Assembly: GCA_049973045.1 (NCBI GenBank)
Contig: JBMFJZ010000003.1
Coordinates: forward strand, 142,319-206,318
Reading direction: 5' to 3'
From: Bacteroidota bacterium
Lineage (GTDB): Bacteria > Bacteroidota > Ignavibacteria > 0-14-0-80-59-12
Length of the DNA stretch: 64,000 nucleotides
The translations under genes were made by a program, and so were the position numbers. Below are positions 477 through 20,080 of this stretch, in pieces (the stretch's first letter is position 1; each line of letters opens with the position of its first letter). The notes under the pieces were generated by a model. The model did no database searches, was not told where the DNA came from, and saw only the letters and a list, made by a program, of their open reading frames with translations.

Positions 477-691
477 TCAATATACAATGATAGTTTTAGA
501 AAATCAAGTCATGACTTCATTAATATAATTCGCAAAACCCTTTCGAAACGCTTTCTTCGCAAGATTCTCTGGAGCCAGTCAATAGTCCGCCTCTGGCGGG
601 TTAGAGCAAATGAAAGGTTAAGGTCATTCAGATTGGTCTTATCGGCACAAGCTGGTGGAGCGTGCATTTTTCTTGCTTAAAAATAAGAGCC

Positions 692-718
692 CTGATCCCA
701 CTTTGGGGGATCAGGGCT
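692..718 (-). terminator. Terminator hairpin immediately 3' of tRNA-Leu (CCCTGATCCC-loop-GGGATCAGGG, then TTATTTTT on minus)
   Basis: Perfect 10-bp inverted repeat plus T-run seen in sequence. Confidence 0.6.
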
Positions 719-723
719 TTCAG

Positions 724-807
724 TGCGGAAGGCGGGACTTGAACCCGCATGCCCTTTCGGGCGCCACCCCCTCAAGATGGTGTGTCTACCAGTTCCACCA
801 CTTCCGC
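724..807 (-). tRNA. tRNA-Leu (anticodon GAG), long variable arm
   Basis: Reverse complement GCGGAAGTGGTGGAACTGGTAGACACACCATCTTGAGGGGGTGGCGCCCGAAAGGGCATGCGGGTTCAAGTCCCGCCTTCCGCA. Acceptor 7 bp, anticodon stem CCATC/GGTGG, loop CTTGAGG, T-arm GCGGGTTCAAGTCCCGC. Closely resembles the E. coli Leu-GAG tRNA. Confidence 0.85.
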
Positions 808-897: not shown

Positions 898-1629
898 TCA
901 CTCAAAGATATTTTCAAGCCTTCGGTAGCTTGTGTGCATTTTTTCAATCGCAGCAACCACCTCTTTTTTACCTTGCCCCTTTTCAAGGGCGTCACGGACT
1001 AAAAGGAGTGACTTAGAAAGCTCATCACGCGCTTTCTCAAAAGCAGCTTTCTTACTGGCAAATTTCGATGGGAGTTCAGATGAATTAAGTACCTGCATTT
1101 TCGCTTGCAGTTCAATTACCGCTGTTCGTATTTTCACAGTGTCGTACGCTGGCAAATAATGGTGATAGAGCATGTACAATGTTCGATGAAAGTCATCAAT
1201 CTCTTTCATCGTCGGTTTGATTAATCGAACAAGTCCCTCGTACTGTGCATGAAGTTTTTCAGCGATTCTTAGAATCAGCGCGGTATCTGTTCCCTCAACT
1301 GCACTTTTGTAGTCATGAACCGTTATACCGAGATCCTTCACTCCACTTTCCCAGGCAGACTTCTTATCTCTGAGAATGCCGGGCAGTTCCGCTTTAGTCA
1401 GGTTAGTGTATCCTGCTTCGATGGCGGGTGCGAGTGAACGCATCAGCCCAACGTCTTTCTTTGGCCAGGCAACATGCCAAAGTTTGTATATCACAGCATG
1501 GTATTGCTTAAGCTCTTTGACTTCAGGATTTGTTTCTCCCTCATGAACCGACTGCGCAAAGGCTGCGACACTTAATGCCGCACACGTACAAAATAAGAAT
1601 AAAATAGCGTTTCGCATATTTTCCTCCAT
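898..1629 (-). CDS. Secreted all-helical hypothetical protein with a signal peptide; last gene of the ECF/TonB operon
   Basis: N-terminal signal LFLFCTCAALSVAAFAQ; 14-nt gap to the upstream M16 gene. Confidence 0.55.
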   Translation of the reverse strand: MEENMRNAILFLFCTCAALSVAAFAQSVHEGETNPEVKELKQYHAVIYKLWHVAWPKKDVGLMRSLAPAIEAGYTNLTKAELPGILRDKKSAWESGVKDLGITVHDYKSAVEGTDTALILRIAEKLHAQYEGLVRLIKPTMKEIDDFHRTLYMLYHHYLPAYDTVKIRTAVIELQAKMQVLNSSELPSKFASKKAAFEKARDELSKSLLLVRDALEKGQGKKEVVAAIEKMHTSYRRLENIFE

Positions 1630-1643
1630 GACAAAATAAGTAG

Positions 1644-4484
1644 TTAATCTGAAAGCATCTTGAGGATTCTCGATGAAATGCTTTGGTCGACGGGACCATC
1701 AACGACTATCACGAATCGGTCGGTCGTGAAGAACTTTCGAGCAACACTCAGTACGTCATCTTTGGTCACAGCAAGTATTCTATCAGCTCTTTTATCGAAG
1801 AAATCGAGTGGCTTCTTGTCTCGCAACATATCAAAGGTACGTGACGCTACATCATCAGGAGTCTCTATGTAGAACGGGAGAAGCCCGAGGAAATGCAGCT
1901 TCGCTCGGATCAATTCGCTGTCTGCAACTCCATGCTCAAGGAGTTTTTTAATTTCACGAAAGATCCCTGCAACAACTGAATCAACGTTTCCGGGAGCGGT
2001 CTTTGTATTGAACTTCCAGTATCCAACTTGATCTCCTTTCTCCCACAACTCGCTTTTGATGCCGTAGATCATGCCTCGCTTTTCGCGAAGCTCGATACCA
2101 ACCCGGGACGTGAGCGCACTCGACGCAAAGATGTAATTCAAGATATCAACGGCTTCCTCAATTGAATCAGGGATATCATTAAATGGCGCAAATCCAATGT
2201 TGATTGTAGCTTCAGTGTAGTCGCTATCTGTAAACACTCTCACGTCCTTTCCATGAAGCTCCGGCGCTGGGGGAATTGGTTTGGTTTCTGGAGGCGGTAC
2301 ATTGGCTTTCCATTTGCCGAAGTATTTATCAGCCAGTTTCCGCATCTCGCCGTGTGACATATCGCCCACCATCACGATTGTCAGCAACCTCGGATTAAAA
2401 TATTTGTGATGAAGGGAGATTAGGTCACTGCGCCTAATTGCTGTCAACGAGCTCTCAGTAGCCATAAATGTCGAGTATGGATGACCCCGGAAGATCTTGT
2501 CGAACATGTAGTAGAAAGCCACCTCTCTCGTCGTCTTTTTCCACTGACGAGCTCTTTCTATGTGACGGCTTAATACTTTATCAATGTCATCTTGCCTGAA
2601 GCCCGGTTCTGTGACAATCTTGTATCCCGTCCGCACCATTTCGTCGGCGTCTTTGGTCAGAGAGTAGCCTTGAAAATACAGCCTCTTATACGAGCCGTCA
2701 ACGCTGAAAGAATACGGAACATAGCCCATCCTTTCAGAAAGCTCGGCATACGTTATATCCTTTGTCCCTCTGTTCATTACATCGCAAAGAACGCTGACAA
2801 TACCTGGCTTACCTCCTCCAATTGTCTCTGGAATCAGGCCTGTTTCGAAAATTCCCCCAATAAAAATTGCCGGTGCGAGGTGATTCTCTATCGTATATAG
2901 TCTGATGCCATTGCTAAGCTTGTGAGCCTTGACCATTGGAGCAATCGGTTTAGGTCGCAGCAGCGTGGCGGTATCTATAGCTGTTGTCACGCTGGCTGCC
3001 GGCAGGTTGAAGGACGTCGTGTAGTTGAAAATCGCTTCATCATCGACTTCCTGAAATGGACAGACGTCAAGCTTTTCATCTTCAGCTTCGCCTGTTTCCG
3101 CGTCTGCACCTTTTTTCGGTTTGGCATCAGGCTTCGGCAGCCCGTAAAGAACAGTTGCCTGGTCTTGATTGAAATATTCTTGCATCACTCGCTGAACATC
3201 TTCTCGTGTTACAGCCGCGACACGCTTTGAAAACTCATCAATGTAGTCAAGTCCGTAGTATGCCTCATACATACTCAAGCGTGCACCGATGTCAGCATTC
3301 TTCGTATAGTCAGTCACCTGACTGAATTCAAATCGATTTTTCACGCGCTGCAATTCATAAAGGGTAACCAGCGAGTCCTGCATCCGTTTAATTTCATCCC
3401 ATACTATACGCTCAGCTTGATAGATATTGCTGTCGGACTTCACGGCGACAGTTATGCGGAATAGGCCCTCGTCTTTTGCTGTTGGCATTCCGCCTGTCGC
3501 CATCGTTGCAATTTGTGCTTCCTCAACGAGGCGCTTGTAGAGACGGGCAGTCCTACTACGTGCGCCCAATATCATTCCTGCAACGCGTAGAGGAGCGCCA
3601 TCTGGATGCTTCAGGTTTGGCACATGAAATGCTATGTGGAGAATTGGAGCGGTAATGTCATTGTGGTAAAGGGTGATCGTTTTCTTTGCCTTCTGAGGTT
3701 GTTCTTCGATATAAACGGGCGGTGGCTCAGGGCCCCGCGGAATCTGTCCATAGTATCGATTGACAAGTTTCAGAATCTGGTTTGTATCAAAATCACCCAC
3801 CAGGACAAGAAACGCATTGTTAGGGGTATAATACGACCGGTACCATTGATACGCTTGGTCACGGGTGATGTGTCTAATATCCGTAGGCCACCCGATAATC
3901 GGATCGCGGTTCGGGTGGCTCTGGTAAGCGACGGAGTTCATGTATTCATGCATAACTCCAGACACTGCGCTCTCACTGCGCATCCTTCGCTCCTGAAGAA
4001 TTACGTTCACCTCCGATCGGAATTCAGCGGTATCAAATCTGCAGTTCTGCATTCTGTCCGATTCAATATCAAATGCAATCTCAATCTTGTTCGCCGGTAA
4101 ATATTCAAAATAGCTCGTCATGTCATTCATTGTGAAAGCGTTGAAGACGCCAGAATTCTCAGATATTGTTTTTGCGATCTTTCCTTTGTCGTAACGAGCA
4201 GTACCTTTAAACATCATGTGCTCAACTATATGCGATATGCCCGTAATCCCGAGATGCTCGTTGCGAGAACCGACCCGATAGGTGAGTTGATGATAAACAA
4301 GGGGTGCTATATGGCGTTCCATGGTGAATACGACCAAACCATTTGGCAGCTCATGCCGATATACTTTTCCCTCTTGATATTGACCTGCCCACACAATCGA
4401 AGCAAGTAAGATTATTAAGGCAAGCGCGCTGATAAGTGTAGTTTGTTTGGTTTTCATTGCCTTCTCCATTTTAGGGTTTTCCAA
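1644..4484 (-). CDS. Secreted zinc metallopeptidase, M16 (pitrilysin/insulinase) family, two tandem M16 units (946 aa)
   Basis: Inverted-zincin motif HIVEHMMFKG (HxxEH) near the N-terminus; signal peptide; length fits a fused two-half M16. Confidence 0.85.
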   Translation of the reverse strand: MENPKMEKAMKTKQTTLISALALIILLASIVWAGQYQEGKVYRHELPNGLVVFTMERHIAPLVYHQLTYRVGSRNEHLGITGISHIVEHMMFKGTARYDKGKIAKTISENSGVFNAFTMNDMTSYFEYLPANKIEIAFDIESDRMQNCRFDTAEFRSEVNVILQERRMRSESAVSGVMHEYMNSVAYQSHPNRDPIIGWPTDIRHITRDQAYQWYRSYYTPNNAFLVLVGDFDTNQILKLVNRYYGQIPRGPEPPPVYIEEQPQKAKKTITLYHNDITAPILHIAFHVPNLKHPDGAPLRVAGMILGARSRTARLYKRLVEEAQIATMATGGMPTAKDEGLFRITVAVKSDSNIYQAERIVWDEIKRMQDSLVTLYELQRVKNRFEFSQVTDYTKNADIGARLSMYEAYYGLDYIDEFSKRVAAVTREDVQRVMQEYFNQDQATVLYGLPKPDAKPKKGADAETGEAEDEKLDVCPFQEVDDEAIFNYTTSFNLPAASVTTAIDTATLLRPKPIAPMVKAHKLSNGIRLYTIENHLAPAIFIGGIFETGLIPETIGGGKPGIVSVLCDVMNRGTKDITYAELSERMGYVPYSFSVDGSYKRLYFQGYSLTKDADEMVRTGYKIVTEPGFRQDDIDKVLSRHIERARQWKKTTREVAFYYMFDKIFRGHPYSTFMATESSLTAIRRSDLISLHHKYFNPRLLTIVMVGDMSHGEMRKLADKYFGKWKANVPPPETKPIPPAPELHGKDVRVFTDSDYTEATINIGFAPFNDIPDSIEEAVDILNYIFASSALTSRVGIELREKRGMIYGIKSELWEKGDQVGYWKFNTKTAPGNVDSVVAGIFREIKKLLEHGVADSELIRAKLHFLGLLPFYIETPDDVASRTFDMLRDKKPLDFFDKRADRILAVTKDDVLSVARKFFTTDRFVIVVDGPVDQSISSRILKMLSD

Positions 4485-4564
4485 ATCCGTATACCTAAAT
4501 CAATTATGCAGCCGGAAGACTCTTCCGTGTGGCCAACCAAAGCCTTCCAGCTGCATCCCTGGCG

Positions 4565-6778
4565 TTATTTGAGCAACAGCATCTTGTTGCGGGCAACTGC
4601 GTTCCCAAATCGTAATTCGTAAATATACACACCACTGGGTAGTCCACGTCCGTCAAAAAAAACTTCATGAACGCCCTGGGAATTGAAGCCGTCAACGAGG
4701 TTGCAAACAAGACGACCAAGCAAATCGTAAACGTTCAAAACTACGCGACCAGGCGTAGGCAAAGCATAATGGATTTTCGTTGTCGAATTGAATGGATTCG
4801 GATAGTTTGCCGCGAGATGGATTTCTTGTGGAAATATTGCGTGTTCATCCCGAACTGAGGTAACTGGAGCAGAAGTGTAGATCGAACTGTTTGATCCGGC
4901 AATCCAGGGATAGCCCGAATAGTCAACCGCACAAGAATAAAGACTCTGCTTAACGATGCTTGCGTCCAGGGAATACGGAGCCCACGATGCACCATTGGTA
5001 GTACTCAGAAGGCTATTGTTGCCAACTGCGTAACCAACTAGATTTGCTCCAACTCTGCGGAAACTCACTCTATTGAACTGCTCAGCGGCGCTATCGACAA
5101 ATGTCCAGCTCGCACCGGCATCGATAGACCGCAATATGATTTTATTTCCAACCGCAACAGCTGTGCTGCTATCAAGATATGCTATATCCCGCAAGTTGCT
5201 TGATAGCAGCGAGCCGGGTACCCCGCTGACATTGGCAGCCGACCAGGTGCTTCCCCCGTCACCGGTGTAAACAATTTTCAGCCCGTCACCAACAGCAGCT
5301 CCCTTTAGGGCGTTTCCAAACGCAACAGCGCGCAAAGCTTTATTTACTATCCCTGTCCTGATTGTCCATGTCTGCCCGCCGTCAGTAGTGTGGTAGATAA
5401 TATCAGTACCCGACTTTAGCTGGCCGACAACGATCCCATTCTGGCTATCGGTAAAGTAAACGCCGTAGCTGGCTGTAGTAGCAGAAACCGTATCAGGTAA
5501 AATCATTTGCCACGATTCTCCACCATCGGTTGTCTTAGCAACCATACGGTAGCTGCATGCCGCATAACCATTACGCTCATCCACGAAATAAATGTCTTGG
5601 ATGTTAGGTGACAAACCATTTGCATAGAGGTACTTCCCGCTCCACGTCTCGCCACCATTCGTTGTTTTCAATATTACTCCGCCATAACCGGCTGCGTAGG
5701 CTACCTTCGCGGACGCAAATTGAAGCGCATAGAGAGTTGAGCCCGGAACCTCTGTTACCAGAGTCGGTGTCTCCGACAGATTCACCCATCGAAAGATGGT
5801 TCCGCCGCTACCGACAATGAGGAACAGGTTTTTGCTGTAATGCGCGCCATAAAGAGTCACGCCCGATGGTACATTTGCCTTGTGCCAATGCACACCGCCA
5901 TCAGTAGTTGTTAGAACTACACTGCCTCTGGGACCACCGCCAGCGGCGACGCCTGTTAGCGTATCTTTGAAGACAACAGCGTACAAATTATCGTAAGTCC
6001 TGTCAGCGGAGTCCTGTGTCATGTACACCCAATTCGCACCCCCGTTAGTGGTCTTTAAAAGGATAGAGGGCTGAAGTCCAGCCGCAGAACTCCCCCAACC
6101 TACTGCGTACCCAACGAGTGGGGTGAAAAGATGTACTCCACGGATATCTGATCTCGTGTACGTAAAGCCACCCAGAGAAGGTGTTGGAGCTTTCGTCCAC
6201 GTTTGACCTCCGTCTGTTGTGTAGTACAAAACAGCCGCCGAAGACCCTACGACCACACCATTGGAACCATTAAACGAGAAGGCGTTGAATTCTTCATTGG
6301 CAACGTAATGAACGGTAGTCCATGTATTTCCACCATCCACGGTCTTCAGCACCCTCCCGTTCTTCCCCGACTCGGAGCTGAGAAGAAATCCGGTCAGCGC
6401 ATTCGTAAACTGGATACCGCGAACGCTCGCACCTGTTTCCGGGATTTCCGATAAGGTTGTCGCTCGCCATGTCATGCCTCCATCAGCGGTCTTCACCAGA
6501 GTCCGGCTGTAACCACCCACAAAACCAACATTAGCATTGAGGAAGAAAACCTTTTTCAGATCAGCTGTGGTTCCTGAAACTTGAGGCACCCATGTAATCC
6601 CACCGTCGTTCGTAACATAGATCGCACCACCAGAACCAACAGCCCATCCCCGGAGCGTATCCACCAAAAACACATCAGCAAAGCCTGGATACGTTGCTGT
6701 AGCAACCTGCCGCCAAGTCTGAGCTTGCAAGGACACAGCAACAAGAATCAGGAAAATAACAAATGACCAACGCTTCAT
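4565..6778 (-). CDS. BNR/Ycf48-like repeat beta-propeller protein with a T9SS (Por) C-terminal sorting domain
   Basis: About 12 repeats of T(D/N)GGxTW (TNDGGITW, TADGGMTW, TVDGGNTW and others); C-terminus NYPNPFN...GVYIYEL...LLLK typical of a T9SS CTD. Start moved to ATG 6778, which has GGAGG 5 nt upstream and begins a signal peptide MKRWSFVIFLILVAVSLQA. Confidence 0.8.
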   Translation of the reverse strand: MKRWSFVIFLILVAVSLQAQTWRQVATATYPGFADVFLVDTLRGWAVGSGGAIYVTNDGGITWVPQVSGTTADLKKVFFLNANVGFVGGYSRTLVKTADGGMTWRATTLSEIPETGASVRGIQFTNALTGFLLSSESGKNGRVLKTVDGGNTWTTVHYVANEEFNAFSFNGSNGVVVGSSAAVLYYTTDGGQTWTKAPTPSLGGFTYTRSDIRGVHLFTPLVGYAVGWGSSAAGLQPSILLKTTNGGANWVYMTQDSADRTYDNLYAVVFKDTLTGVAAGGGPRGSVVLTTTDGGVHWHKANVPSGVTLYGAHYSKNLFLIVGSGGTIFRWVNLSETPTLVTEVPGSTLYALQFASAKVAYAAGYGGVILKTTNGGETWSGKYLYANGLSPNIQDIYFVDERNGYAACSYRMVAKTTDGGESWQMILPDTVSATTASYGVYFTDSQNGIVVGQLKSGTDIIYHTTDGGQTWTIRTGIVNKALRAVAFGNALKGAAVGDGLKIVYTGDGGSTWSAANVSGVPGSLLSSNLRDIAYLDSSTAVAVGNKIILRSIDAGASWTFVDSAAEQFNRVSFRRVGANLVGYAVGNNSLLSTTNGASWAPYSLDASIVKQSLYSCAVDYSGYPWIAGSNSSIYTSAPVTSVRDEHAIFPQEIHLAANYPNPFNSTTKIHYALPTPGRVVLNVYDLLGRLVCNLVDGFNSQGVHEVFFDGRGLPSGVYIYELRFGNAVARNKMLLLK

Positions 6779-6863
6779 TATAAACCTCCACTTTCCAAAG
6801 TTTAACATTAGTGAATTACGAGACATCCATAAATGTTCAATCTTCTCATGTCAGAATATCCAC

Positions 6864-8360
6864 TCAACGTTGAGGCAGGCTTACCAAAACTTGCACAAGG
6901 CTGTTAGAATTCGCAACTACACCATTTGAAGCGTGTATCGAAGACCTAACGTACGAATACGTTGCAGCAATCTGGATTCCGCTTCCAAACTGGTATTGCC
7001 ATTCGGACCACGCGAAGAACCTGCGTGCATCATTTCCACCCACTACGGGGTCCGCATTTATCGCGCCGTAGCCAAGCCCCAGACGTACACCGACTCTGCT
7101 CAGCAAGGTACTCTCACCACCAATCTGCGCTCCAAATTGCAATGAACGCAATTCAGTAAAACGATTGTCAATGTATTTGCTCGAGTCGATTGCACAAACA
7201 CGCAGGGTTCCTTGTAAGAACATACGAGTTTCATGAGAAACTGACCGAGCAACAGTCAATATACCATGCACGTATTGATAGCTCCATTCCCAGATGAGGA
7301 GCTTCTTCGCTGACAACTCCGACCAGGAATTGGACACGCCTGCTTTAAGATTACCTGACATCTGAAAGTTATGCGACAGACGCCATTGCGCAAGAAGATC
7401 CCCCTGAAGGTTCTCAAATTGCGTGTAGCCATCTTCAGATTCTTTCAAGAAAGCAGTAGGTATAAGGGTCTGCAACTCAGTACGGTTTCCACGAAGATAA
7501 CCCATCAACGTGAAACTCTTGCAACTTAAGTTTGCAGCCTGCATTGAAATCTCCACACCGCTTAACCTTACCTTTTCCTCAAGACTTTGCCCTCTTCTCC
7601 TTGTGGCGTATAGGTCACCACGATAGGTAAACACGTCAACATCAAGCAACTCCTCCATCTTTGACTCGATTCTCTCTTGTGAACTATATACGCGGAAAGA
7701 TAAGCCATAAAGCATACGATTATTGCTATAGACAATCGCTCCAGTGCTGGCATCTACACTACGGACAACATTATGCGCCCTAGAATAGGCATTTTTCAGT
7801 CCATCGGAGACGCTGTACTCAATTGCCAGGCCTATTGTCAGATTCCGAATTGGGTTGAACGAATGGATAAATTCCACTTCGGGTCCATAATAGCGATAAT
7901 CTCCTTTGGAAGTGTCACTGATGAAAAAGGGATCTCCTAAGTAAGGCTGACTTCGAAGGGAGCCATGTATTCCCAATTCCTTCATCCCATAGTATTTGAA
8001 CCTGCCAAGGAAAGCACCGCTTTCTCCGAGCCTTTGCAAAGTCTGCGCGTTGAAGGAAGCTCCCTGCACTTCGTGCGGATCGAACAGCCTTCCAAAATGG
8101 TTGAACATGTCTCGCGCAGATGCTGTGACGTGAACGTAACCGCGAGTCATATCAAAAGAAAGTCCAGCCGGATTCCCACTAAATGTGTACAACCCAAGCT
8201 GCACCCCTGGCAATAGCATCTGTAAACACTCGCCGGTCTCTTCACTAACAATTGGTATTGCAAGATCTGAGCACGCAGGTAGAGTGACCAGAGTATCAAG
8301 CCCTGAGCCAAAAGCTGAACCTGCGTACATCATCAATGCTAAAGCAAATGCTTTCTTCAT
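6864..8360 (-). CDS. Putative outer-membrane beta-barrel protein (498 aa) with a signal peptide; may match the DUF6850-type OM proteins that accompany TonB receptors
   Basis: Signal MKKAFALALMMYAGSAFG; alternating aromatic/hydrophobic C-terminal strands (IQIAATYSYVRSS); the family assignment is from memory and not verified. Confidence 0.5.
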   Translation of the reverse strand: MKKAFALALMMYAGSAFGSGLDTLVTLPACSDLAIPIVSEETGECLQMLLPGVQLGLYTFSGNPAGLSFDMTRGYVHVTASARDMFNHFGRLFDPHEVQGASFNAQTLQRLGESGAFLGRFKYYGMKELGIHGSLRSQPYLGDPFFISDTSKGDYRYYGPEVEFIHSFNPIRNLTIGLAIEYSVSDGLKNAYSRAHNVVRSVDASTGAIVYSNNRMLYGLSFRVYSSQERIESKMEELLDVDVFTYRGDLYATRRRGQSLEEKVRLSGVEISMQAANLSCKSFTLMGYLRGNRTELQTLIPTAFLKESEDGYTQFENLQGDLLAQWRLSHNFQMSGNLKAGVSNSWSELSAKKLLIWEWSYQYVHGILTVARSVSHETRMFLQGTLRVCAIDSSKYIDNRFTELRSLQFGAQIGGESTLLSRVGVRLGLGYGAINADPVVGGNDARRFFAWSEWQYQFGSGIQIAATYSYVRSSIHASNGVVANSNSLVQVLVSLPQR

Positions 8361-8380
8361 CGCTTATTCGGCAACACTCA

Positions 8381-9484
8381 TCACTGATAACCCGGTGTAG
8401 GATGGGAAATGATTTCGAAATCAAGAGTCGAGTTATTGGTATCGTACCCAGGCTCTCGACGCTGCATTGACATACCCGAGTATCGAGGTGGGCTGAGAGT
8501 GAACCCACGATCCACCCTTGGATCAAGCGTTTTCCGGGCTGTCGGACTCCCATGGTATTCCACAGCATCGATGATAGTCCGAATATCAATCCCGTCCGAC
8601 CAAACGGAATCCTCCCCGGATGAAAGCACAACTATATCCCCAACCAAGTTAATGAGGAAATCCGTGGTACGGTCCGAACGCATATTGATTACATTCGGTA
8701 CATTGGGATTGTCAATATCTTCCGCCGAGTATTGGTTATAGAACTCCCAATCAGCATGGGAAAGGTCAATGCTTGTTGGACACGTCTTCCTATGGTCAAC
8801 AGCATCGGATGCTAAGACAACAAATTGCCTTGGTCTGATTGGGTAGTTATGTTCGCCCGGTGTACCTGGAAACTTGAAAGCATATGTTACACCATCAATG
8901 TCACCATCATTTCCTTCATCGGCGCCAGGACCCTTCCCGTCATTGTTTCCAGAAACTCTCATAACCATCATACCATCAAGATACTTTGTCTCACCACTTG
9001 CGTTATAGAGTTCAATAAACTGGTCAAAGAAAAAGAAGAAATTATTAACCGGTCCGCTACTATAAATCTCGTTGATTACAAGTCCGGTGCTAGACGTCGG
9101 TTCCACCATCACTGTCTCAACAACTGATGACGCAGGCGGGACTTCGATCTTCTCGAGACTTCCAACAAGCTGGATTGTCGGATCGCCTGGATATGGTGCT
9201 CTCGCAGTAACGGAGTACTCAGAACTCGGGAGTGACATCCACTGCGCTCTGCCAAACTCATCTGTGTAGCCAATTTTCATGCCGTATTCGCTGGAAAGGA
9301 TAACCTTCGCCCCGGCAACAGGAGCATATGCGGTTGAATCTTCAGCAGACGAGGTGTCGCTTAGAACCAGCAACACCAAATGGGATGTTCCATCCGCCTG
9401 AGTTGGTTTTTCCCTCATACAGCCCCCAAACGCGCCGGAACATACTGCAAGCCAAATTACAAAGCCAATGTACAGTGACCTCAT
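8381..9484 (-). CDS. Lipoprotein with a lamin-tail-domain-like fold (367 aa)
   Basis: Lipobox-like AFGGC; LTD signature VINEIYSSGP...FIELYNASGETKYLDGMMV; 4-nt overlap with the upstream TonB gene. Confidence 0.6.
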   Translation of the reverse strand: MRSLYIGFVIWLAVCSGAFGGCMREKPTQADGTSHLVLLVLSDTSSAEDSTAYAPVAGAKVILSSEYGMKIGYTDEFGRAQWMSLPSSEYSVTARAPYPGDPTIQLVGSLEKIEVPPASSVVETVMVEPTSSTGLVINEIYSSGPVNNFFFFFDQFIELYNASGETKYLDGMMVMRVSGNNDGKGPGADEGNDGDIDGVTYAFKFPGTPGEHNYPIRPRQFVVLASDAVDHRKTCPTSIDLSHADWEFYNQYSAEDIDNPNVPNVINMRSDRTTDFLINLVGDIVVLSSGEDSVWSDGIDIRTIIDAVEYHGSPTARKTLDPRVDRGFTLSPPRYSGMSMQRREPGYDTNNSTLDFEIISHPTPGYQ

Positions 9485-12423
9485 TTTACCAACCCTTCAA
9501 TTGCCATGCTAAACTCTATCCCATAAAAAATCGGTGGATTTCTTACCTCCTCTGTAATGTCGTTTGGATTACTTGTAAACTGGTATCGGTAAAGTCCAGG
9601 ATTGTCGAATATGTTGTTCACATAGAACGAAAACTCAGCACCTTTGAACAATGATTTACTGATATTAATGTCAAACAGCCATTTCCCGGGTTGACGCTTG
9701 ACGCGCCGTGCAAACAACCAGTCAAGTTTCTGCGTTTCTGTCATACGGTCCAAAGCCACAGGTTGCATACCCAAGTCCTGCCTTCGCTGCCACAGGAGGT
9801 GCTCAGCACGCAAGCTTACCCAAAGACCAACCGTTCGCGCGACATACCGAACCCAAAAATTCAGCACGATATTATCCTGCCACACCACCCCCTTTGGATA
9901 AGTCCATCCAATAATTGTGTCAACCGGAGCGCCAGGCACGCGATAGTTTGGGTATTGACCGATACTTGTGTCCGGGTACGCAGAATACGAGGGAATATTC
10001 GAACCGCTCTTGGTGTAGTTGTACGCAGCGGTTATTTGGAACTCTGTGTTAAGCAACTCGATCTTTCGCGTACGGAAAGAGAGTTCCAGTCCCTTGCTAA
10101 TCATCCAACTACCGTTAGTTGCTCGCGATGTCTGACCAACAAAAAACACGGTTGGTGTGACCCCTCTCTGCGCAACTGCGAACAGTGGAACAGGCTCACC
10201 ATCAATGCCGTCCGAGGTCGATTTGTAGTAGGATGATACTGAAAGGCCGACTGCATCCATGAATTTTTGGTCAAATGATAGTTCAAACTGCTTCTCGCGG
10301 TAAGACTTTAGGTCTGGCGCTCGGCGGTCGAGCCTAAAATAGACAACCGCGCTGTCATAGGGATTTCTCCAGCGAAATACCTCCGGGGGAGGATAAATCG
10401 AACTCATCGGGGGCGATTTTGTCATGCTGCCTGCACTAATCCTTAATTGACTTGAGCTCCCCAAACGCAGCATCAAGGCAACGCGTGGATTGAAGTAGCT
10501 GCCTTGATAAGCTTGAACAAGATCACCCTTTCCAATGATACCACTAATGTTCAACCTATATGGCCTATACATGTCATATCTTGCTCCGAGAACAAAAGAG
10601 TAATCAAACAGTAAGTGCCCAACAATCTTATCTTCCGCATAGAGTCCCAAGAGGACCTGACCGGGGATATCATCGAATGAGTACGATCTCTTGCCTGACT
10701 GAGAACCGTAATAGTTGAACAATGTATCGACCAAGACTCCATCTCCAGTATTTGCGTTATACTCAATGTCAGACCCAAGCAATAGCGAATGGATTGTATT
10801 TCCCGTTAGAATTCGTCGTGTGAATTCAAGCTTTCCTCCGATATTCCACATGTTCCCTCGGGTCTCGACCTTTCCATAGTACGTTGATATAGTATCTCCT
10901 GAAGGCAAAATCCGCAAATCGCTTTGTACAAGTCTTGATTTCATACTGTTCAGCCGCTGATAATTTATGTATCCATTAAAATTCAGTAGGGAGACTGCAC
11001 TCGGTTCCCAGTTCCCCCAAATGCTGTACGAAAGTGAGTAGCCGCGATTATAGTTTCTTGTTTGAAACACATCCCCCTTGGGCTGTTCCTCATCAAAAAT
11101 TCTCTGAGCGAATATCTTTGTATTCAAATCTATATGCTCCGCTGGAATTTCCCTATTAATTACCAACTGCCCGGTTAAGCGGGTATATTCGTCACCGCTC
11201 ACTCGAATATCCCTTTCACTCTGTGCTGCGTTAATATTATAGCTGAACCCAGTTTCATTCCAAGTGAATCCGCCGCCGAAATTCCCTTCACGAGTATCAG
11301 GATTTTGCTTGAGTTTTAACCGCGGAGGCTGCTTCCCGGCTTTGGTTTTTACATTAATCAATCCTGACGTCAACTCGCCATATCGAACCGAGGGAACACC
11401 ACGTATGACCTCTATTGATTCAACATTATCTGCAGGGATCAAACGTAAATCAGCCCCCCTGCCAACGGTTGAAACCCCTGTTTTTGCGCTCGTGAATTGT
11501 TCAAACTGGAGATTTGCATTATTGGAAATTGGTATACCATCAACAATAACTCGCGTGCCAAAAGCCGTGAGATCTACGTCGCCTCCAAGAATTCCTTGCT
11601 GACTGCGTACGGCAGCCTGAAGCGTCTTCCCGAGTCCGGGATTGGCTGTTCGCTGCACACCGGGAACCAGATCGAGAACATCTCCGACACTCGACGCCTG
11701 GTAATGCTCAATTTCAGCACTTTTTATCTGCGTCTTCGTCTCCGTCTCAACTGGCAGCAGCTCTTGCGTAGCTTCGACCACCATCTCGCCTATTCTCACC
11801 GCCGAAGATTCAAGGATAAATTCAATCTCACGAACCTCTCTCGCTGCGATTTTCACAACATGAACACCCTTCTGGTATCCTATATATGATGCCTCTACAG
11901 TGTATGTCCCGGGCTTCAGATTTCGCAAAAGGAAAAAGCCCTCTCCATTTGTCGTCGTTCCTTGACGCGTCTCCCGAATCAGAACTGTAGCTCCAACCAG
12001 CGCTTCCCCATTCCTTCCTCTCACAGTTCCCGTCACAGAACCAGTCTGCTGGCGGGCACGTTCAAAACCGACTATGATGATCCTACCGCTCGGCGAGATT
12101 ATATACTCCAACCCCAGCGGCTTGAGAAGTTCTTCAAGAGCATCCTCCAGAGTCTCGTCGATGAAGTTGACAGATACTTTTCGAAATCCCCGAATTGTAG
12201 CTTCGTCATATAAAAACCGAACGCCCGATCTCTGGCTCAGTTGACGCAGGACGAATCGCAGGGGAACATCCTTTGCCTCAAGGGTTACACGGCGGTGGAG
12301 AGATAACGAATCAATTTGATAATATGTCATCACTAATTCACCATCCATGGTAACACGAGCGACAGCCGGAAAAGTGATATAAGCAGAAATGAACAGAATA
12401 AGTAAAATGAACCGCCACTTCAT
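9481..12423 (-). CDS. TonB-dependent transducer: N-terminal STN signalling domain, carboxypeptidase-regulatory-like domain, plug and beta-barrel (980 aa)
   Basis: STN region VTLEAKDVPLRFVLRQLSQRSGVRFLYD...IISPSGRIIIV; CarbopepD_reg GSVTGTVRGRNGEALVGATV; ATGA overlap with fecR. Confidence 0.85.
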   Translation of the reverse strand: MKWRFILLILFISAYITFPAVARVTMDGELVMTYYQIDSLSLHRRVTLEAKDVPLRFVLRQLSQRSGVRFLYDEATIRGFRKVSVNFIDETLEDALEELLKPLGLEYIISPSGRIIIVGFERARQQTGSVTGTVRGRNGEALVGATVLIRETRQGTTTNGEGFFLLRNLKPGTYTVEASYIGYQKGVHVVKIAAREVREIEFILESSAVRIGEMVVEATQELLPVETETKTQIKSAEIEHYQASSVGDVLDLVPGVQRTANPGLGKTLQAAVRSQQGILGGDVDLTAFGTRVIVDGIPISNNANLQFEQFTSAKTGVSTVGRGADLRLIPADNVESIEVIRGVPSVRYGELTSGLINVKTKAGKQPPRLKLKQNPDTREGNFGGGFTWNETGFSYNINAAQSERDIRVSGDEYTRLTGQLVINREIPAEHIDLNTKIFAQRIFDEEQPKGDVFQTRNYNRGYSLSYSIWGNWEPSAVSLLNFNGYINYQRLNSMKSRLVQSDLRILPSGDTISTYYGKVETRGNMWNIGGKLEFTRRILTGNTIHSLLLGSDIEYNANTGDGVLVDTLFNYYGSQSGKRSYSFDDIPGQVLLGLYAEDKIVGHLLFDYSFVLGARYDMYRPYRLNISGIIGKGDLVQAYQGSYFNPRVALMLRLGSSSQLRISAGSMTKSPPMSSIYPPPEVFRWRNPYDSAVVYFRLDRRAPDLKSYREKQFELSFDQKFMDAVGLSVSSYYKSTSDGIDGEPVPLFAVAQRGVTPTVFFVGQTSRATNGSWMISKGLELSFRTRKIELLNTEFQITAAYNYTKSGSNIPSYSAYPDTSIGQYPNYRVPGAPVDTIIGWTYPKGVVWQDNIVLNFWVRYVARTVGLWVSLRAEHLLWQRRQDLGMQPVALDRMTETQKLDWLFARRVKRQPGKWLFDINISKSLFKGAEFSFYVNNIFDNPGLYRYQFTSNPNDITEEVRNPPIFYGIEFSMAIEGLVK

Positions 12424-13493
12424 CTTACAACGATTTCCTTACCATTGCGTGTGATTTTCACGTCCATTGCAACAGCAATATCCGACAATACTTCGTCTAA
12501 TGATTCTCTCCCAAATACACCAGTAAGCAATTTCCTCTTCACAGATGCGCTGCCGAATGAAACTTTCACATCGTACGTGCGTTCTATTTCTTCCATGACC
12601 TCATCGAGCGGCGTTCTGTCAAATGAAAGCTTGTTCCACCGCCAAGCGATAGCCTCCGCTGTTGACACGCGCTGAACTGCTGTGATAGATGCGGATCGTT
12701 CATCGTACTTTATCATTTGTCCTTTCCTTACCCGCACAGTTTCTGCAACGCTTGTAAACTGCACTGCGCCTTCCGTCACGACAACACTTACTTTCCCACG
12801 ACGATAGCGCACATTAAACTCGGTACCAATAGCTTCCGTCAGCGATGTTCCAGCTACTACTCGAAATGGCTTACCTGGGTCTTTTGCGATAGAAAAATAA
12901 GCTTCCCCATCCAACCATACCTGCCTTACACGAGCGTTCCCTTTTATTGCATATCGCAACCGACTCCCGGAATTCATATAGATGACACTCCCGTCGGGAA
13001 GCCAAACCACTGATCGCTGACCATTTGCTGTTGTAACTTCAGCAAGTTGCGAGTCGTGTCTGTCATCCTGAACCCTTAGCCTGGGAAGACCTAAATAGAT
13101 GAAGAGCGAGACGGTAGCAACCGTAACCAGGGCAACAGCTCCCCATGCAACGATGTGCACCGCAGCTGCACGTCGCCGCGGCTTGCTCTTCCCGCCCCGA
13201 CTACCTAACGCCAAAGCAACTCCCACGGCTACGGGCCGAGTACCATCTACTTCATCAGCACGCTGACGGATGCCTTGCAACACCCCGTACCACTCCTCAC
13301 TGGGACTCGGTGGCTCAGGAGCAGGTAGTTCCCCGGTCTTTTCCCAGAGAAAACTTACCGAGGCGAAAATCTCACGATGTTGATCTGATTCTTCAAGCCA
13401 TTCTTCAAAGAATTCGCGCTCCTCCTCACTGACTTCTCCCTTGAGGACACGTATGATAAACTGTGCATCGACACTTTTCCGCATAGCGCACAT
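12420..13493 (-). CDS. FecR-family transmembrane anti-sigma factor
   Basis: Single TM (HIVAWGAVALVTVATVSLFIYL) followed by a FecR domain (VVWLPDGSVIYMNSGSRLRY) and a DUF4974-like C-terminus. Confidence 0.85.
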   Translation of the reverse strand: MCAMRKSVDAQFIIRVLKGEVSEEEREFFEEWLEESDQHREIFASVSFLWEKTGELPAPEPPSPSEEWYGVLQGIRQRADEVDGTRPVAVGVALALGSRGGKSKPRRRAAAVHIVAWGAVALVTVATVSLFIYLGLPRLRVQDDRHDSQLAEVTTANGQRSVVWLPDGSVIYMNSGSRLRYAIKGNARVRQVWLDGEAYFSIAKDPGKPFRVVAGTSLTEAIGTEFNVRYRRGKVSVVVTEGAVQFTSVAETVRVRKGQMIKYDERSASITAVQRVSTAEAIAWRWNKLSFDRTPLDEVMEEIERTYDVKVSFGSASVKRKLLTGVFGRESLDEVLSDIAVAMDVKITRNGKEIVVR

Positions 13494-13554
13494 AAGCTTC
13501 TCCTAATTAAATACACATACAAAGGGAAAAAGTACTATGCAGAGGAGAAAATGC

Positions 13555-14112
13555 TCAGTCTAAATAATGAGAAAGGCGATTTCGCAGGACTGTGATAGCC
13601 TTGTTCATTTGGTTCTTAACCGTCTGGAGTGAAATCCCAAGGGTATCAGCAATTTCAGAGTAACTCATATCATGGTATCGGCTTAAGATGAAAATCTCTC
13701 GGCATCGGTTAGGCAGGGAATTAATTGCTTTTTGCAGATCATCATCTAAAAAAATGTGGTCGTGCTTCTCCTCGGTGCTAAGATATGGTGATGCAAGGAC
13801 TCCTTCGGTGGCGACTGAAAGTCGAAAGGCGCGCCGGGTTCTTGCAAGATAATTGAGCGCAAGATTCCTGGCTATCCGAAAAAGAAATGATTTTGCCGAA
13901 AGCGAGGGTTCGATCCGTTCATGAGAACGCCAGAAGTTAATAAATGTGTCTTGAGCGATGTCTCTCGCAACATCCCAATCACCTGTATAGCGATAGACAA
14001 AAAGGAAAATCTCAGGGTGAAGAGAATGGAAAAATTCTTTGAACGCATCTACATCACCCAGCCGAATTCTCTCGAGCACATCGGCTTCAATATGTCGCGA
14101 GCCTCGTTCCAT
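13555..14112 (-). CDS. ECF-type RNA polymerase sigma-70 factor
   Basis: Region 2 (LFVYRYTGDWDVARDIAQDTFINFW) and region 4 HTH (YSEIADTLGISLQTVKNQMNKA). Confidence 0.85.
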   Translation of the reverse strand: MERGSRHIEADVLERIRLGDVDAFKEFFHSLHPEIFLFVYRYTGDWDVARDIAQDTFINFWRSHERIEPSLSAKSFLFRIARNLALNYLARTRRAFRLSVATEGVLASPYLSTEEKHDHIFLDDDLQKAINSLPNRCREIFILSRYHDMSYSEIADTLGISLQTVKNQMNKAITVLRNRLSHYLD

Positions 14113-14436: not shown

Positions 14437-14745
14437 ATGGTTCTCGCTGAGTTCAGCATGTTCCCCACCGACAAGGGGGAAAGTGTGAGTGCCTATGTTG
14501 CAAAAGTTCTCAATATTGTTGATCGCTCCGGAATTTCGTACCAACTGACAGCAATGGGAACCCTCCTTGAGGGGAAATGGGAAGAAGTGATGGGGGTCAT
14601 TTCAAAATGTTTCAATGTGCTGAGGAGGGAATCGAACCGGATTTACGTTGTAGTGAAGATGGACTACAGAAAGGGGCGGACACATCGGATGAAGGCGAAA
14701 GTAAGCGCTGTGGAAAAGCAACTCGGAAGAAAATTGCAAAGTTGA
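14437..14745 (+). CDS. MTH1187/YkoF-family (DUF77) thiamine-binding-like small protein
   Basis: Matches the family pattern along the whole 102 aa (AEFSMFP...GTLLEGKWEEVMGVISKCF); AAGGAGGT Shine-Dalgarno 5 nt upstream. Confidence 0.75.
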   Translation: MVLAEFSMFPTDKGESVSAYVAKVLNIVDRSGISYQLTAMGTLLEGKWEEVMGVISKCFNVLRRESNRIYVVVKMDYRKGRTHRMKAKVSAVEKQLGRKLQS

Positions 14746-14806: not shown

Positions 14807-17800
14807 TCAATCGGCGTCGAGCGCATTACGCACTTTCGAAACCAGATTCTGCACGTTGTATGGCTTCTGAATGAATCCACGCACCCCCTCCCGCAGGATT
14901 TCCTGCGCCTTACCATTCTGACTGAACCCCGTTGAGAGGATTGCCTTTACATCAGGGTTGATTTCCCTGAGTTTCCGGTATGTTTCATGACCTCCCATCT
15001 TCGGCATAATCATATCCAGGATTACCAGAGAGATTTCACTATGCTTCTTTCTGTATATATCGATTGCTTCTTCTCCGTTTTTTGCAGTAAGCACTTTGTA
15101 ACCGTAGCTACCAAGCACGTCCGCTACCAGTGTCCGAATCGATTCCTCATCATCCACGACAAGTATCAGTTCATTCCCTCCTCGCAGAGCAATCATCTGC
15201 TCACCTGGCTGGGCTTCCTCTTTCTCACTTGCCGGTAAGAACACGCGGAACGTGGTACCCTCTCCTACCTCACTGTACACCCGGATAAACCCACCATGGT
15301 TCTTCACTATCCCGTACACGACAGCCAGACCAAGGCCTGTGCCTTTCCCTTTCTCCTTCGTTGTGAAGAAAGGCTCAAAGACGCGGCTGAGCGTCTGCTT
15401 ATCCATCCCTACTCCCGTGTCAGTAACAGAGACCACAACGTAAGGACCTGGTTTTGCGCCAAGGCGTTTCTTCGCATAGTCCTCATCGAGCATCATGCTA
15501 TGGGCTTCGATGATCAATCTCCCGCCCCCAGGCATAGCGTCACGCGCATTCACACAGAGGTTCATCAGCACTTGTTGAATCTGCCCGGGATCGGCCTCAA
15601 TTGTAGGGAGTGAACGATCGACGTGCGTTACGATTTCAATCGACCGATCGAACGTCCTTTCTACGATCTGTAAAGTCTCCTCAATGATCCTTTCCACTTT
15701 CACAGGCTTCGTATCGTATTTGCCACCACGTGCAAAGGCGAGAAGCTGAGAAGTAAGTTCAGCAGCTCGAATGCCACTTCGCTCAATGGTATCAACATAA
15801 CGATACATCGGGTCACTCTCCGCTAAGCGTGTCTTCAGGAATGAGGCGTACCCTAAGATTCCACCGAGGAGGTTATTGAAATCATGCGCAATACCGCCTG
15901 CTAAAAGTCCAATGGATTCCATTCTCTGCGCCTGCGCAAGCTGCTCCTGCAGATAGGCACGCTCCTCCTCTGCACGGCGATGCTCAGTCGTGTCATGAAA
16001 CGCAATCGCAACTCCGCTCTGCGTCCGCCAGAGGACAACATCAAAGATACGAGAGCCACTATGGCATTCACATTGAACGTCACGCAAAATAACGCTTTTC
16101 CCCGACTCGTAAACCTGACGGAAGAGTGCATCCATCCCTGCAACTTCAATGTTCGTGAGAAGAGCAGAAAGTCGCTTGCCGAGAGCAAAAGACCGATCGA
16201 TTCCGAACGTTGACGCTGCTGCACTGTTCCATTCAGAAACGAGAAAAGATATTTCATTTCCTCCACCTGCGCGTTCGGCGACTGGAACAACCGGTGTTCC
16301 CTCAATTGTCTGGATCGTCAAGAGAACAAATGGGTCAACCATGTTATCGATCACCTGTCGGAACAGGTCGAGTGCAACTCTCAGATTCGCTGTTCGCTCA
16401 TTCACAAGGTAAGCTAACTGCCGCTCACGCTGACGGCTCTGCTGCAATCGAAGTCTCACCGCTCCCCCTACAATTCCACCAATGACAAGGAGTGAAATTC
16501 CTAAAAACCAAGTTCTCTTCCAAATTGGAGGAAGGACGCTAAATTGGATCCGCGCAGGGGTATTTGTCCATACCCCATCGGTGTTGCATGCACTCACCTC
16601 AAGTGTGTACTCTCCGGGCACAAGAGCAGGAAAGACCACCTGCCGATCTTTCATCGGAGCTGACCACTCATCGCTAGATCCGAGCAATCGATATTTGTAT
16701 AGTACACCTGAATGCCCAACATAGGTGAGAGCAGCGAACTCTACTCGGAATGCGCGATCTGATGAAGCGAATTCCAACTGCATTCCTTCCTGTGGGAGCG
16801 CAACTGGCTTTCCATTGACGAAGAAACCTGTCACAGCGACACGGGGTGGCTTTGTATGCATCTGCACATGAAGAGGATCAATGTATGATGCTCCGCCTAT
16901 TGTACCAACCCAAATCCTTCCCTGAGAATCGAGAAGCGTCGCTCCCTGGTTCGTCTCGCGATCTGCAAGTCCATCTTCAGGTCCGAAGGTACGCCATGTC
17001 TTCCCATCGAACCTCGCAACTCCATTTACGGTGCCAGCCCAAATATTTCCTCCGCGATCCTCGCTGATAAAAAACGTCAGGTTATGTGGCAAGCCATTTT
17101 TATCCGTGTAGACGCCGACGATTTTCTCATCCCTGATTTGCACTACACCTCCATCGGTGGCTGCCCAGATCGACCCGTCGTGCGCCGCAAGCACTGCAAG
17201 CACATTGTCATGGGGTAATCCATCGGCTCGTGTGAAACGCCGGAACTTTCCCCCTCGATACTCGGTTAATCCTGCTCCATAGGTTCCAAACCAAAGCGCA
17301 GCACCATTTTTAACTTGCGCTATGGCAGAGATCACATTGCTCCCTAATCCATCTCGCTCTGTGAGTCGCGTGATGTTCCCATGATCAATATGGACAGCCC
17401 CACCGCCATCGGTCCCAAACCAAAAAGAGCCATCCTCTGCCTGGAGAATCGAAAAGACTGTTGAACTCCCAAGCATCGTCTTCCCATAATGCGTTACAAC
17501 ACCGGATCTCACAGAGTAAACCCCATGATTATAATATGCCACCCACAATGTTCCTCTCCTATCGACCGTAATCGCTTGCGCTGGCTCCTTAGGGAGCGCC
17601 GCGGGAATTGACCGAAACGTGATCCGCCCATGTTCAAAGCGGGCTAAACCGCGGTTTGTTCCGATGAGGATCGACCCATCACGGTCTTCTCCGAAGCTCC
17701 ACACCACATTGTGTGGCAAGCCATCACGGACCGTGAAGGAATGGAATTTCACCACTATGAACTCAACCACACCGCCACCAGTCGCTGCCCACATATTCCC

Positions 17801-19775: not shown

Positions 19776-19806
19776 AAAAAAGCCCTCGAATATCAAGGGC
19801 TTTTCG
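19776..19806 (-). terminator. Terminator hairpin directly after tRNA-Lys (GAAAAGCCCTTGATATTCGAGGGCTTTTTT on the minus strand)
   Basis: Inverted repeat plus T-run seen in sequence. Confidence 0.6.
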
Positions 19807-19878: not shown

Positions 19879-20080
19879 TTCGTCCTTGTAAATAAATATA
19901 CAAAGCACTGACCTTCGAATCAACAATTCCATCGAGCAAATTCGCTTTCGGCAAACAACAAAAAGAGGTCAAGCTTCCCTGCATCACACGAGTGCAATTG
20001 CTGACCGTTGCTTCCTTCCGGACCTGGCGGGGTTGGGCAACGCCTCGTTGCACAGGACTTGACCTCCTGTACTCGACGTG

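Follow-up and report, generated by a model that had tools for sequence, protein, structure and literature searches.

A conserved TonB-dependent transport locus of Ignavibacteria with a putative DUF4876 lid, a DUF6850 barrel, a predicted type IX-secreted propeller and an M16 peptidase

Within a 64,000-nucleotide stretch of a Bacteroidota bacterium of the Ignavibacteria (assembly GCA_049973045.1, contig JBMFJZ010000003.1, positions 142,319 to 206,318; hereafter the window), the listing of open reading frames (ORFs) places eight collinear ORFs, all on the minus strand, between positions 898 and 14112. They encode an extracytoplasmic function (ECF) sigma factor, a FecR-type anti-sigma factor, a TonB-dependent transducer, a DUF4876 lipoprotein, a DUF6850 outer-membrane barrel, a beta-propeller with a sorting domain of the type IX secretion system (T9SS), a fused tandem M16 metallopeptidase and a small helical protein (Table 1). 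The system is conserved and essentially uncharacterised. Its core is a near-invariant four-gene outer-membrane module comprising the transporter, the DUF4876 protein, the DUF6850 protein and the T9SS propeller, and M16 is a frequent and repeatedly retained partner of that core.

The FecR and transporter genes meet in an ATGA overlap at 12420-12423, which reads ...AGATGAAG..., and the transporter and lipoprotein genes meet in a second at 9481-9484, which reads ...AAATGAGG.... Both overlaps had been proposed in a sequence-only reading of this DNA, which described eight collinear minus-strand genes running from a sigma factor to tRNA-Leu and its terminator, and the ORFs lie where that reading placed them. 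Of the two gaps it gave, that of 14 nucleotides (nt) stands whereas that of 38 nt measures 37; the non-overlapping gaps are 61, 20, 37, 80 and 14 nt, and the 80-nt gap between the propeller and M16 genes becomes 107 nt if M16 starts at the ATG at 4457. A terminator scan found no terminator-like site in the intergenic gaps of the cluster. Three minus-strand terminator-like hits upstream of tRNA-Leu are weak and all lie within coding sequence, and the hits total 10 compared with 13.5 expected from shuffles. A promoter-like site at 870-842, between the ORF for the 243-residue protein and tRNA-Leu, suggests that the tRNA has a separate promoter.

Table 1. Genes and boundary features of the cluster in the window.
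Feature	Position	Strand	Basis
ECF sigma factor, Bacteroidetes type, 185 aa	13555-14112	-	Sigma70_r2, Sigma70_r4_2, TIGR02985
FecR-type anti-sigma factor, 357 aa, one transmembrane segment	12420-13493	-	DUF4880, FecR, FecR_C
TonB-dependent transducer, 980 aa	9481-12423	-	signal peptide, STN, CarboxypepD_reg-like, Plug
DUF4876 lipoprotein, 367 aa, lamin-tail-like core, putative surface lid of transporter	8381-9484	-	DUF4876, lipobox
DUF6850 outer-membrane beta-barrel, 498 aa, ~20 strands, without plug domain	6864-8360	-	DUF6850, AlphaFold2 model
Double Ycf48-like BNR beta-propeller, 753 aa, predicted surface-displayed	4565-6826	-	PSII_BNR, TIGR04183
Fused tandem M16 metallopeptidase, 946 aa from TTG, predicted periplasmic	1644-4484	-	Peptidase_M16, 2x Peptidase_M16_C
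All-helical predicted periplasmic protein, 243 aa, tandem repeat	898-1629	-	no family match
tRNA-Leu(GAG), downstream boundary of cluster	723-807	-	ARAGORN; Rfam tRNA 49 bits
Intrinsic terminator after tRNA-Leu, 12-bp stem, 8 GC pairs, T-run	688-718	-	terminator scan

Related loci were collected by a motif scan using one genome per species, which gave 78 loci, and three look-ups added more; about 85 loci were compared in all. ORFs were called in these loci (denoted L with a number, followed where needed by positions) and searched with the window proteins, and the counts given here take the loci with room for the gene in question. The relatives belong to Ignavibacteria, Melioribacteraceae, Kryptonia and Marinimicrobia-like bacteria; Ignavibacterium album and Melioribacter roseus carry orthologous loci (such as L015, L043 and L055). 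Among about 80 species-level loci, the transporter precedes DUF4876 in 65 of 66, DUF6850 follows DUF4876 in 56 of 56, and the T9SS propeller follows DUF6850 in 56 of 56, so that the neighbourhood check suggested in the sequence-only reading shows the genes to be strongly co-conserved. The four-gene core is kept in L083-L085, and the core persists across L083-L086, at DUF6850 identities of only 16-22% to the window's protein. In L168 the genes are dispersed, with the DUF4876-DUF6850 pair, transporter, propeller and tandem M16 all within 12 kb. The Marinimicrobia-like L167 encodes in order a Fer4_5 protein, the transporter, DUF4876 and DUF6850, followed by a HEAT-repeat protein that replaces the propeller; HEAT-repeat proteins of about 737 residues neighbour the core at both L085:8292-10502 and L167:7826-10045.

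Family calls compare Pfam matches with the gathering score (GA) and NCBIfam matches with the curated cutoff. The domain searches that the sequence-only reading had called for returned STN and Plug, DUF4876, DUF6850, PSII_BNR and M16 above threshold, and the T9SS tail above its NCBIfam cutoff. Judged by domain content, no member of an ECF sigma/FecR/STN regulatory set is missing. The sigma factor scores 148.5 bits against the TIGR02985 cutoff of 126.4 and also matches Sigma70_r2 and Sigma70_r4_2, the anti-sigma factor matches the Pfam families FecR (67.3 bits), FecR_C (57.2 bits) and DUF4880, and the STN domain that had been read on the receptor is borne out at 47.5 bits against a GA of 28.4; the locus thus combines the ECF sigma factor, FecR-family anti-sigma factor and transporter STN domain of FecIR-type signalling. 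Among the relatives, FecR is present in 40 of 59 loci, with a sigma gene upstream of it in 33 of the 59. Transporters beside FecR are about 1000 residues long and those in loci lacking FecR about 880, roughly 120 residues shorter, a split that fits the STN extension being kept in the one group and lost in the other. A cobalamin or thiamine pyrophosphate riboswitch was rejected as the means of control, since a search for RNA families in window positions 1-20500 and in seven sigma-less loci found neither.

The transporter is ordered as a signal peptide, STN, a CarboxypepD_reg-like domain (CarbopepD_reg_2) and Plug, followed by a barrel of about 630 residues. SusC membership was rejected on the score of the SusC/RagA model TIGR04056, which reaches 91.6 bits against a cutoff of 368.25 in a match limited to residues 129-365. 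The comparison with solved structures yields only plug-level matches (PfeA, PirA and YncD), and the protein falls outside the FusA/YddB clade. That the downstream genes are not SusD-like, as the sequence-only reading had it, holds, and the transporter's failure to match the SusC model now goes with it.

The lipoprotein belongs to DUF4876 (PF16215; 72.5 bits against a GA of 27.9), and the pairing with DUF6850 that had been suggested is confirmed, both families scoring above the Pfam GA. It carries the lipobox ...AVCSGAFGGC, with an invariant Cys22, and has the features of the DUF4876 lids: a lipoprotein signal peptide and a gene that directly follows, and here overlaps by 4 nt, a same-strand gene for a TonB transporter outside the SusC type. 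The lamin-tail domain (LTD) signature that had been read in it is sub-threshold in the window's protein (27.5 bits, under a GA of 34.3), and LTD matches do recur among its homologues. Its only solved relative is PDB 4q1z, matched at an E value of 4e-8 with the single sequence and 3e-13 with the family profile, the similarity being limited to the LTD core. Its conservation is unusually high: the search returned 584 homologues, of which the best 120 share 56-64% identity, save for one near-identical copy at 99%. Price and Arkin proposed DUF4876 as the lid of non-SusC TonB transporters on the basis of AlphaFold-Multimer modelling of BT1938/BT1939 and conserved proximity in 81 genera, and the case for a surface lid draws on AlphaFold-Multimer and on proteinase-K data for Bacteroides homologues (bioRxiv 10.1101/2023.03.17.533168). 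By analogy, the DUF4876 lipoprotein is a putative surface lid and ligand binder. Two DUF4876 paralogues stand in tandem in about 20 loci (for example L003:11194-12315, L008, L012 and L016), as in BT3631/BT3632, and L042 has three DUF4876 genes with no transporter within 10 kb.

The 498-residue protein that had been predicted from sequence as a beta-barrel matches DUF6850 (PF21012) at 63 bits against a GA of 27, and the fold prediction agrees. An AlphaFold2 model built from a 62-sequence alignment of database representatives has a mean predicted local distance difference test score (pLDDT) of 86.5 and a predicted template-modelling score of 0.84, and arranges residues 74-497 as roughly 20 strands preceded by a short N-terminal helical segment. 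Because of this confident model, the protein is described as a large plug-less barrel, one for which no close solved relative is apparent. The most conserved motif of the family, NPAW (within residues 57-70, with N63 invariant), lies in the modelled helix before the first strand, outside the barrel, and may serve as a plug or for docking. The family is small: an exhaustive HMMER search, which was needed since word-based searches with a single sequence or a 30-sequence profile returned two to three proteins, identified 189 cluster representatives among 1.84 billion protein representatives. We found no paper naming DUF6850 and few naming DUF4876.

The propeller matches PSII_BNR in Pfam at 148.6 bits and has twelve Asp-box motifs arranged as 6+6. 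Its type-A T9SS C-terminal sorting domain scores 37.1 bits against the TIGR04183 cutoff of 23, and the Pfam model Por_Secre_tail is borderline (26.8 against 27). This agrees with the DGGxTW propeller of the sequence-only reading and with its predicted export by T9SS. By sequence, its only matches among solved structures are Ycf48/HCF136, Ycf48 being a non-enzymatic scaffold, and the F510_1955 glycosylhydrolase model matches weakly, at 62.5 bits against a cutoff of 175. The propeller is most likely a non-enzymatic capture or scaffold protein.

The M16 protein is 946 residues long when read from its TTG, an ATG at 4469 or 4457 being the likelier start. It comprises a Peptidase_M16 and two Peptidase_M16_C matches, so the tandem M16 of the sequence-only reading is upheld. 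The pitrilysin (M16A) part of that label was rejected, as the protein scores 42 bits on that model, whose cutoff is 765, and the nearest structures to its N-terminal half are those of the M16B peptidases 4nnz and 3amj (E 1e-61). The N-terminal half carries HIVEH at residues 85-89 and is predicted to be active, and the C-terminal half, which has no HxxEH, is predicted to be inactive. The protein has an ordinary signal peptide, with neither a lipobox nor a T9SS tail, and should accordingly be a periplasmic enzyme that acts after import. Since it carries no surface-sorting signal, cleavage would follow import, the reverse of the order of capture, proteolysis and import that had been suggested. 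The locus thus pairs its transporter with a tandem M16 of about 900 residues, predicted to be periplasmic, that has a single N-terminal HxxEH.

The association of M16 with the core recurs among the relatives. Of the 43-47 loci with room, 33 (about 70-77%) have an orthologue of the fused M16, scoring 600-1290 bits, after the propeller, and M16 is present in 23 of 26 loci bearing FecR. Its distance from the propeller falls into three classes, 11-250 bp, about 1.8 kb where an M28/PA aminopeptidase intervenes (26 loci), and 2.3-4.8 kb where there are further genes, including an ATP-binding cassette (ABC) cluster in L017; M16 is retained despite inserts of 0, 1.8, 2.9 or 4.7 kb formed by M28 or the ABC/DUF4857 cassette described below. 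A member of the same M16 clade (738 bits) stands upstream of the transporter in L086, and in L168 the tandem M16 is next to the propeller though the locus is dispersed. For comparison, 78 loci from other phyla with a generic M16B pair of two genes had no transporter nearby. A reciprocal metagenome scan from M16 picked generic M16B motifs, and for that reason serves only as a negative control; it returned only two orthologues, L087 and L088.

The last gene of the cluster encodes a 243-residue protein with no match in Pfam or NCBIfam. It is built as an internal tandem repeat with three invariant histidines in each repeat (H44/H52/H127 and H148/H156/H232). Of 11 loci with room, four have an orthologue after M16 (L001:18007-18744, L006:20021-20734, L020:12775-13524 and L068:19681-20391), which makes the gene, counted as the eighth in the sequence-only reading, an occasional accessory member. 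An AlphaFold2 model from the single sequence has a pLDDT of 66.6 overall and near 90 in the helical C-terminal repeat. The best Foldseek matches of this model are BRIL fusions and cytochrome b562, none at E <= 0.001 (1qq3, E 0.095, template-modelling score 0.72). The Pfam hits to Cytochrom_B562 (PF07361) and Cytochrome C' are sub-threshold, the best being 19.6 bits against a GA of 30 in one orthologue, and an hhalign comparison with cytochrome b562 gave an insignificant probability of 1.2%, so the protein does not qualify as cytochrome b562-like. The protein may bind haem or a metal, which we treat as a lead and not as a finding.

Many relatives carry further genes beside the core. A cassette of an ABC ATPase, a 222-residue membrane protein and DUF4857, the same trio as BT3625-27, occurs in 36-42 loci, where it separates DUF4876 from DUF6850 or else follows the propeller. 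Examples of this mobile cassette are found in L002, L007, L011, L016, L034:13762-15015, L014:10992-11660 and L017:15000-15887. A 648-residue Fer4_5 polyferredoxin-like membrane protein is present in 13 loci and in L167 (L167:431-2365, L078:17486-19432), and PepSY_TM-like and DUF4920 genes lie upstream of the sigma gene in 3 loci (for example L002:2310-3488). These three include L022, the species-level locus with the highest-scoring transporter and M16 in the comparison with the window's proteins. By their sequence families, the accessory genes of the relatives point to a reducible metal.

We read the locus as a cell-surface-signalling TonB uptake system of the DUF4876-lid family that takes up a peptide or small-protein cargo carrying a scarce metal, probably iron, and cleaves it with M16 in the periplasm, and we give this reading roughly even odds (about 0.5). 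Its outer-membrane core would consist of a non-SusC transporter, DUF4876 as lid and ligand binder, the plug-less DUF6850 barrel and the T9SS-anchored propeller, which we infer to form a complex in which DUF4876 caps the transporter and the T9SS-displayed propeller helps in ligand capture. On binding of the ligand, the STN domain of the transporter would signal to FecR, freeing the ECF sigma factor and raising transcription of the operon. The cargo would then enter the periplasm, where the fused M16 would cut it, aided in many relatives by the M28 aminopeptidase, and the system would be a functional analogue of Fus and YddB/PqqL. An iron-linked cargo is probable because DUF4876 loci are induced by iron starvation and because the relatives carry reductase-like membrane proteins and the ABC/DUF4857 cassette. 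Few genes of P. gingivalis and B. thetaiotaomicron respond to iron starvation as strongly as the DUF4876/transporter loci, with PG1019-22 induced 21-214-fold and BT3625-33 induced 37-128-fold by iron depletion (PMC10434189), and PG1019/1020, termed an 'uncharacterized transport system', is up-regulated when a hemH mutant grows in the absence of haem (PMC13096392).

Several results weigh against this reading. The window itself lacks the ABC/DUF4857 cassette as well as the M28, PepSY and Fer4 genes, loci of the Ignavibacteria type are known from sequence alone, and the iron link is carried over from very distant DUF4876 relatives. In B. thetaiotaomicron, DUF4876 and transporter mutants had no phenotype in 519 conditions (bioRxiv 10.1101/2023.03.17.533168). 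The window has no match to the 19-bp Fur-box consensus at three or fewer mismatches, this being the canonical motif, which may not be that of the host lineage, and neither the 15-bp Fur core nor any k-mer is enriched relative to shuffles upstream of 33 sigma genes and 21 sigma-less transporters, a null that is compatible with a lineage-specific regulator. No riboswitch was detected in window positions 1-20500 or in seven sigma-less loci, the RNA families found there being tRNAs and the signal recognition particle (SRP) RNA. The proteins also show limited similarity to those of the proposed analogues: FusA and YddB are not among the transporter's solved-structure matches at E <= 0.01, and M16, whose matches to PqqL (5e-16) and FusC (8e-14) are confined to the catalytic domain, is nearer to generic M16B. 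Because about a quarter of the loci, mostly from Melioribacteraceae that lack FecR, have no M16 within 6 kb, M16 is not obligatory. Finally, the function of DUF6850, whether scaffold, channel or translocon, is a guess.

The strongest rival does away with the metal. Here the system would feed on oligopeptides as a source of carbon and nitrogen, as RagAB of P. gingivalis does, with periplasmic M16 and M28 finishing the digestion. The frequency with which M16 (about 70-77% of loci) and M28 (26 loci) are linked to the core is what such plain peptide or protein nutrition would give, as are the lack of Fur-box enrichment and the window's want of reductase and ABC genes. Sigma/anti-sigma/STN control also serves non-iron nutrients in Bacteroidota, as it does for the SusC-type transducers of that phylum. 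We nevertheless consider this account rather unlikely, given that homologous DUF4876 loci belong to an iron stimulon, that the locus encodes no surface protease to generate peptides, and that peptide feeding needs no Fer4_5 or PepSY_TM proteins or BT3625-27-type cassette, yet many relatives have them.

A second rival keeps the metal and drops the peptide, with the core importing a siderophore-like compound, haem or the free metal, and with M16, M28 and the 243-residue protein as periplasmic housekeeping. The iron stimulon data suit it, as do the PepSY_TM and Fer4_5 accessories beside the core in relatives, the roughly 25% of loci lacking M16 and the weak b562-like lead for the 243-residue protein; Price and Arkin, moreover, argued that non-SusC lidded transporters take small substrates (bioRxiv 10.1101/2023.03.17.533168). 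What makes small-chelate or haem uptake unlikely in our view is the behaviour of M16, whose linkage survives at least three arrangements and deep divergence and which tracks the FecR-bearing loci (23 of 26), whereas generic M16B pairs are not found beside transporters.

Utilisation of a glycan or glycoprotein, in which the BNR propeller would cleave or bind glycans and supply an importer of SusC-like type, appears very improbable. BNR/Sortilin-Vps10-type repeats are known in GH74 enzymes and sialidases, the F510_1955 match exists if far below cutoff, and the transporter N-terminus has a SusC-like layout. Against these stand the transporter's failure on the SusC/RagA model, the absence from the locus of SusD and, in Pfam and NCBIfam above threshold, of any glycoside hydrolase or carbohydrate-binding module, the restriction of the propeller's solved-structure matches to Ycf48/HCF136, and the lack of co-conserved sugar-catabolic genes in related loci. 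Nothing points to the glycoprotein substrate entertained in the sequence-only reading, or to a glycan, and among solved structures the propeller matches only a non-enzymatic scaffold. That there is no system at all, only a lineage-specific synteny block of independently transcribed and functionally unrelated genes, is scarcely credible. In its favour are the gap of 80-107 nt that precedes M16 and the promoter-like site that precedes the tRNA; against it, two junctions overlap by 4 nt, other gaps measure 14-61 nt, intergenic terminators are absent, core order is kept at 16-22% DUF6850 identity and the lipoprotein-barrel pair is kept beyond Ignavibacteria.

If the metal-peptide reading is extended across the FCB group (Ignavibacteria, Marinimicrobia and possibly Bacteroidia through PG1019-22 and BT3625-33), the loci might represent an independently evolved machine for the piracy of protein- or peptide-bound iron. 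Capture would fall to the propeller and lid, import to the non-SusC transporter, dismantling to M16 with or without M28, and metal delivery to Fer4_5/PepSY reductases and the DUF4857 ABC transporter, with DUF6850 as a new class of barrel of about 20 strands that scaffolds the complex or translocates a surface component. We offer this wider proposal only tentatively. The uptake model for the locus would in any case provide a clear example of a T9SS cargo as an integral and obligatory partner of a TonB-dependent transporter, and DUF6850, which has no literature, would gain a context.

Around the cluster, a Thiamine_BP (MTH1187/YkoF-like) gene of 102 residues at 14437-14745 on the plus strand (Pfam 97 bits) forms the upstream boundary. 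Beyond it, at 14807-18703 on the minus strand, lies a hybrid sensor kinase of 1298 residues with Reg_prop repeats, Y_Y_Y, HisKA, HATPase and a receiver domain, in which a domain search found no DNA-binding output domain. The kinase was rejected as a member of the cluster because the plus-strand Thiamine_BP gene intervenes and because it is not co-conserved. An SRP RNA at 19964-20064 (63.7 bits; region 19806-20153, minus strand) is flanked by tRNA-Lys(UUU) and tRNA-Ala(CGC). A second T9SS-tailed protein, of 1032 residues, is encoded at 55339-58437 on the plus strand, its C-terminus matching the sorting domain of SBBP proteins. On the other side, just beyond tRNA-Leu, a 139-residue ORF at 57-476 on the minus strand matches no Pfam or NCBIfam family.

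We found no paper describing the full gene combination, which the sequence-only reading had not recognised as a described system; what that reading missed are the precedents in DUF4876 lids, iron starvation and protease-associated import. With SusCD utilisomes and RagAB, the locus shares the STN, CarboxypepD_reg-like and Plug layout, a surface lipoprotein lid (here putative), accessory surface proteins and an ECF sigma/anti-sigma pair. Unlike them, its transporter fails TIGR04056, its putative lid is DUF4876 and not SusD or RagB, its accessory surface protein is anchored through T9SS and is not a lipoprotein, and it has an extra plug-less barrel. The neisserial TbpA/TbpB/Slam clusters, which serve iron piracy, also combine genes for a TonB transporter, a surface lipoprotein and an additional outer-membrane barrel, but this is an analogy only: Slam has TPR repeats and a DUF560 barrel of 14 strands, and no similarity between DUF6850 and Slam/DUF560 was detected.

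Close counterparts are the Bacteroidia loci BT1938/BT1939, BT3631-3633 and PG1019/PG1020, in which a DUF4876 lipoprotein gene likewise comes directly after a same-strand gene for a TonB transporter that is not of the SusC type. The lipoproteins share the LTD-like core with PDB 4q1z, and the window's relatives carry the BT3625-27 ABC/DUF4857 trio and a HEAT protein like that annotated within BT1933-39. Sequence similarity between these loci and the window's is remote. They differ in that the window transporter is an STN transducer under ECF sigma/FecR control and in that the window adds the T9SS propeller and fused M16, whereas the literature covers only the transporter-lid pair. The Ignavibacteria-type loci give a much richer and highly conserved parts list, with a second barrel, a T9SS propeller, M16 and M28 peptidases predicted to be periplasmic, reductase-like proteins and a sigma/anti-sigma pair.

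Protease-associated import systems, so far described only in Proteobacteria, are iron-regulated and combine a TonB transporter with an ABC transporter and a tandem M16 in the periplasm (PMC6793856). As in Fus (FusA/B/C/D) of Pectobacterium and YddA/YddB/PqqL of E. coli, a TonB transporter is accompanied here by a tandem M16, which in those systems is periplasmic, has about 930 residues and bears a single N-terminal HxxEH (PMC6793856, PMC6071955); many of the window's relatives add an ABC transporter, and the iron regulation of Fus and Ydd matches the iron stimulon data of DUF4876 loci. The window's transporter, unlike theirs, is not FusA/YddB-like, and the locus has an M16 that is closer to M16B, lacks a dedicated TonB paralogue, and has an additional putative lid lipoprotein, second barrel and T9SS propeller. 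Its signalling genes resemble FecIRA in having an ECF sigma factor, a transporter with an STN domain and a FecR-family anti-sigma factor that has a C-terminal domain, and differ in that the anti-sigma factor falls below the FecR equivalog model (69 bits against a cutoff of 385) and the sigma factor belongs to the TIGR02985 type of Bacteroidetes. The system is plausibly like protease-associated import, with a transporter of neither the SusC nor the FusA family and an M16 that lies nearer to M16B than to FusC/PqqL, and what had been a pair of a transporter and a DUF becomes a testable model, an analogue of protease-associated import put together from unrelated parts.

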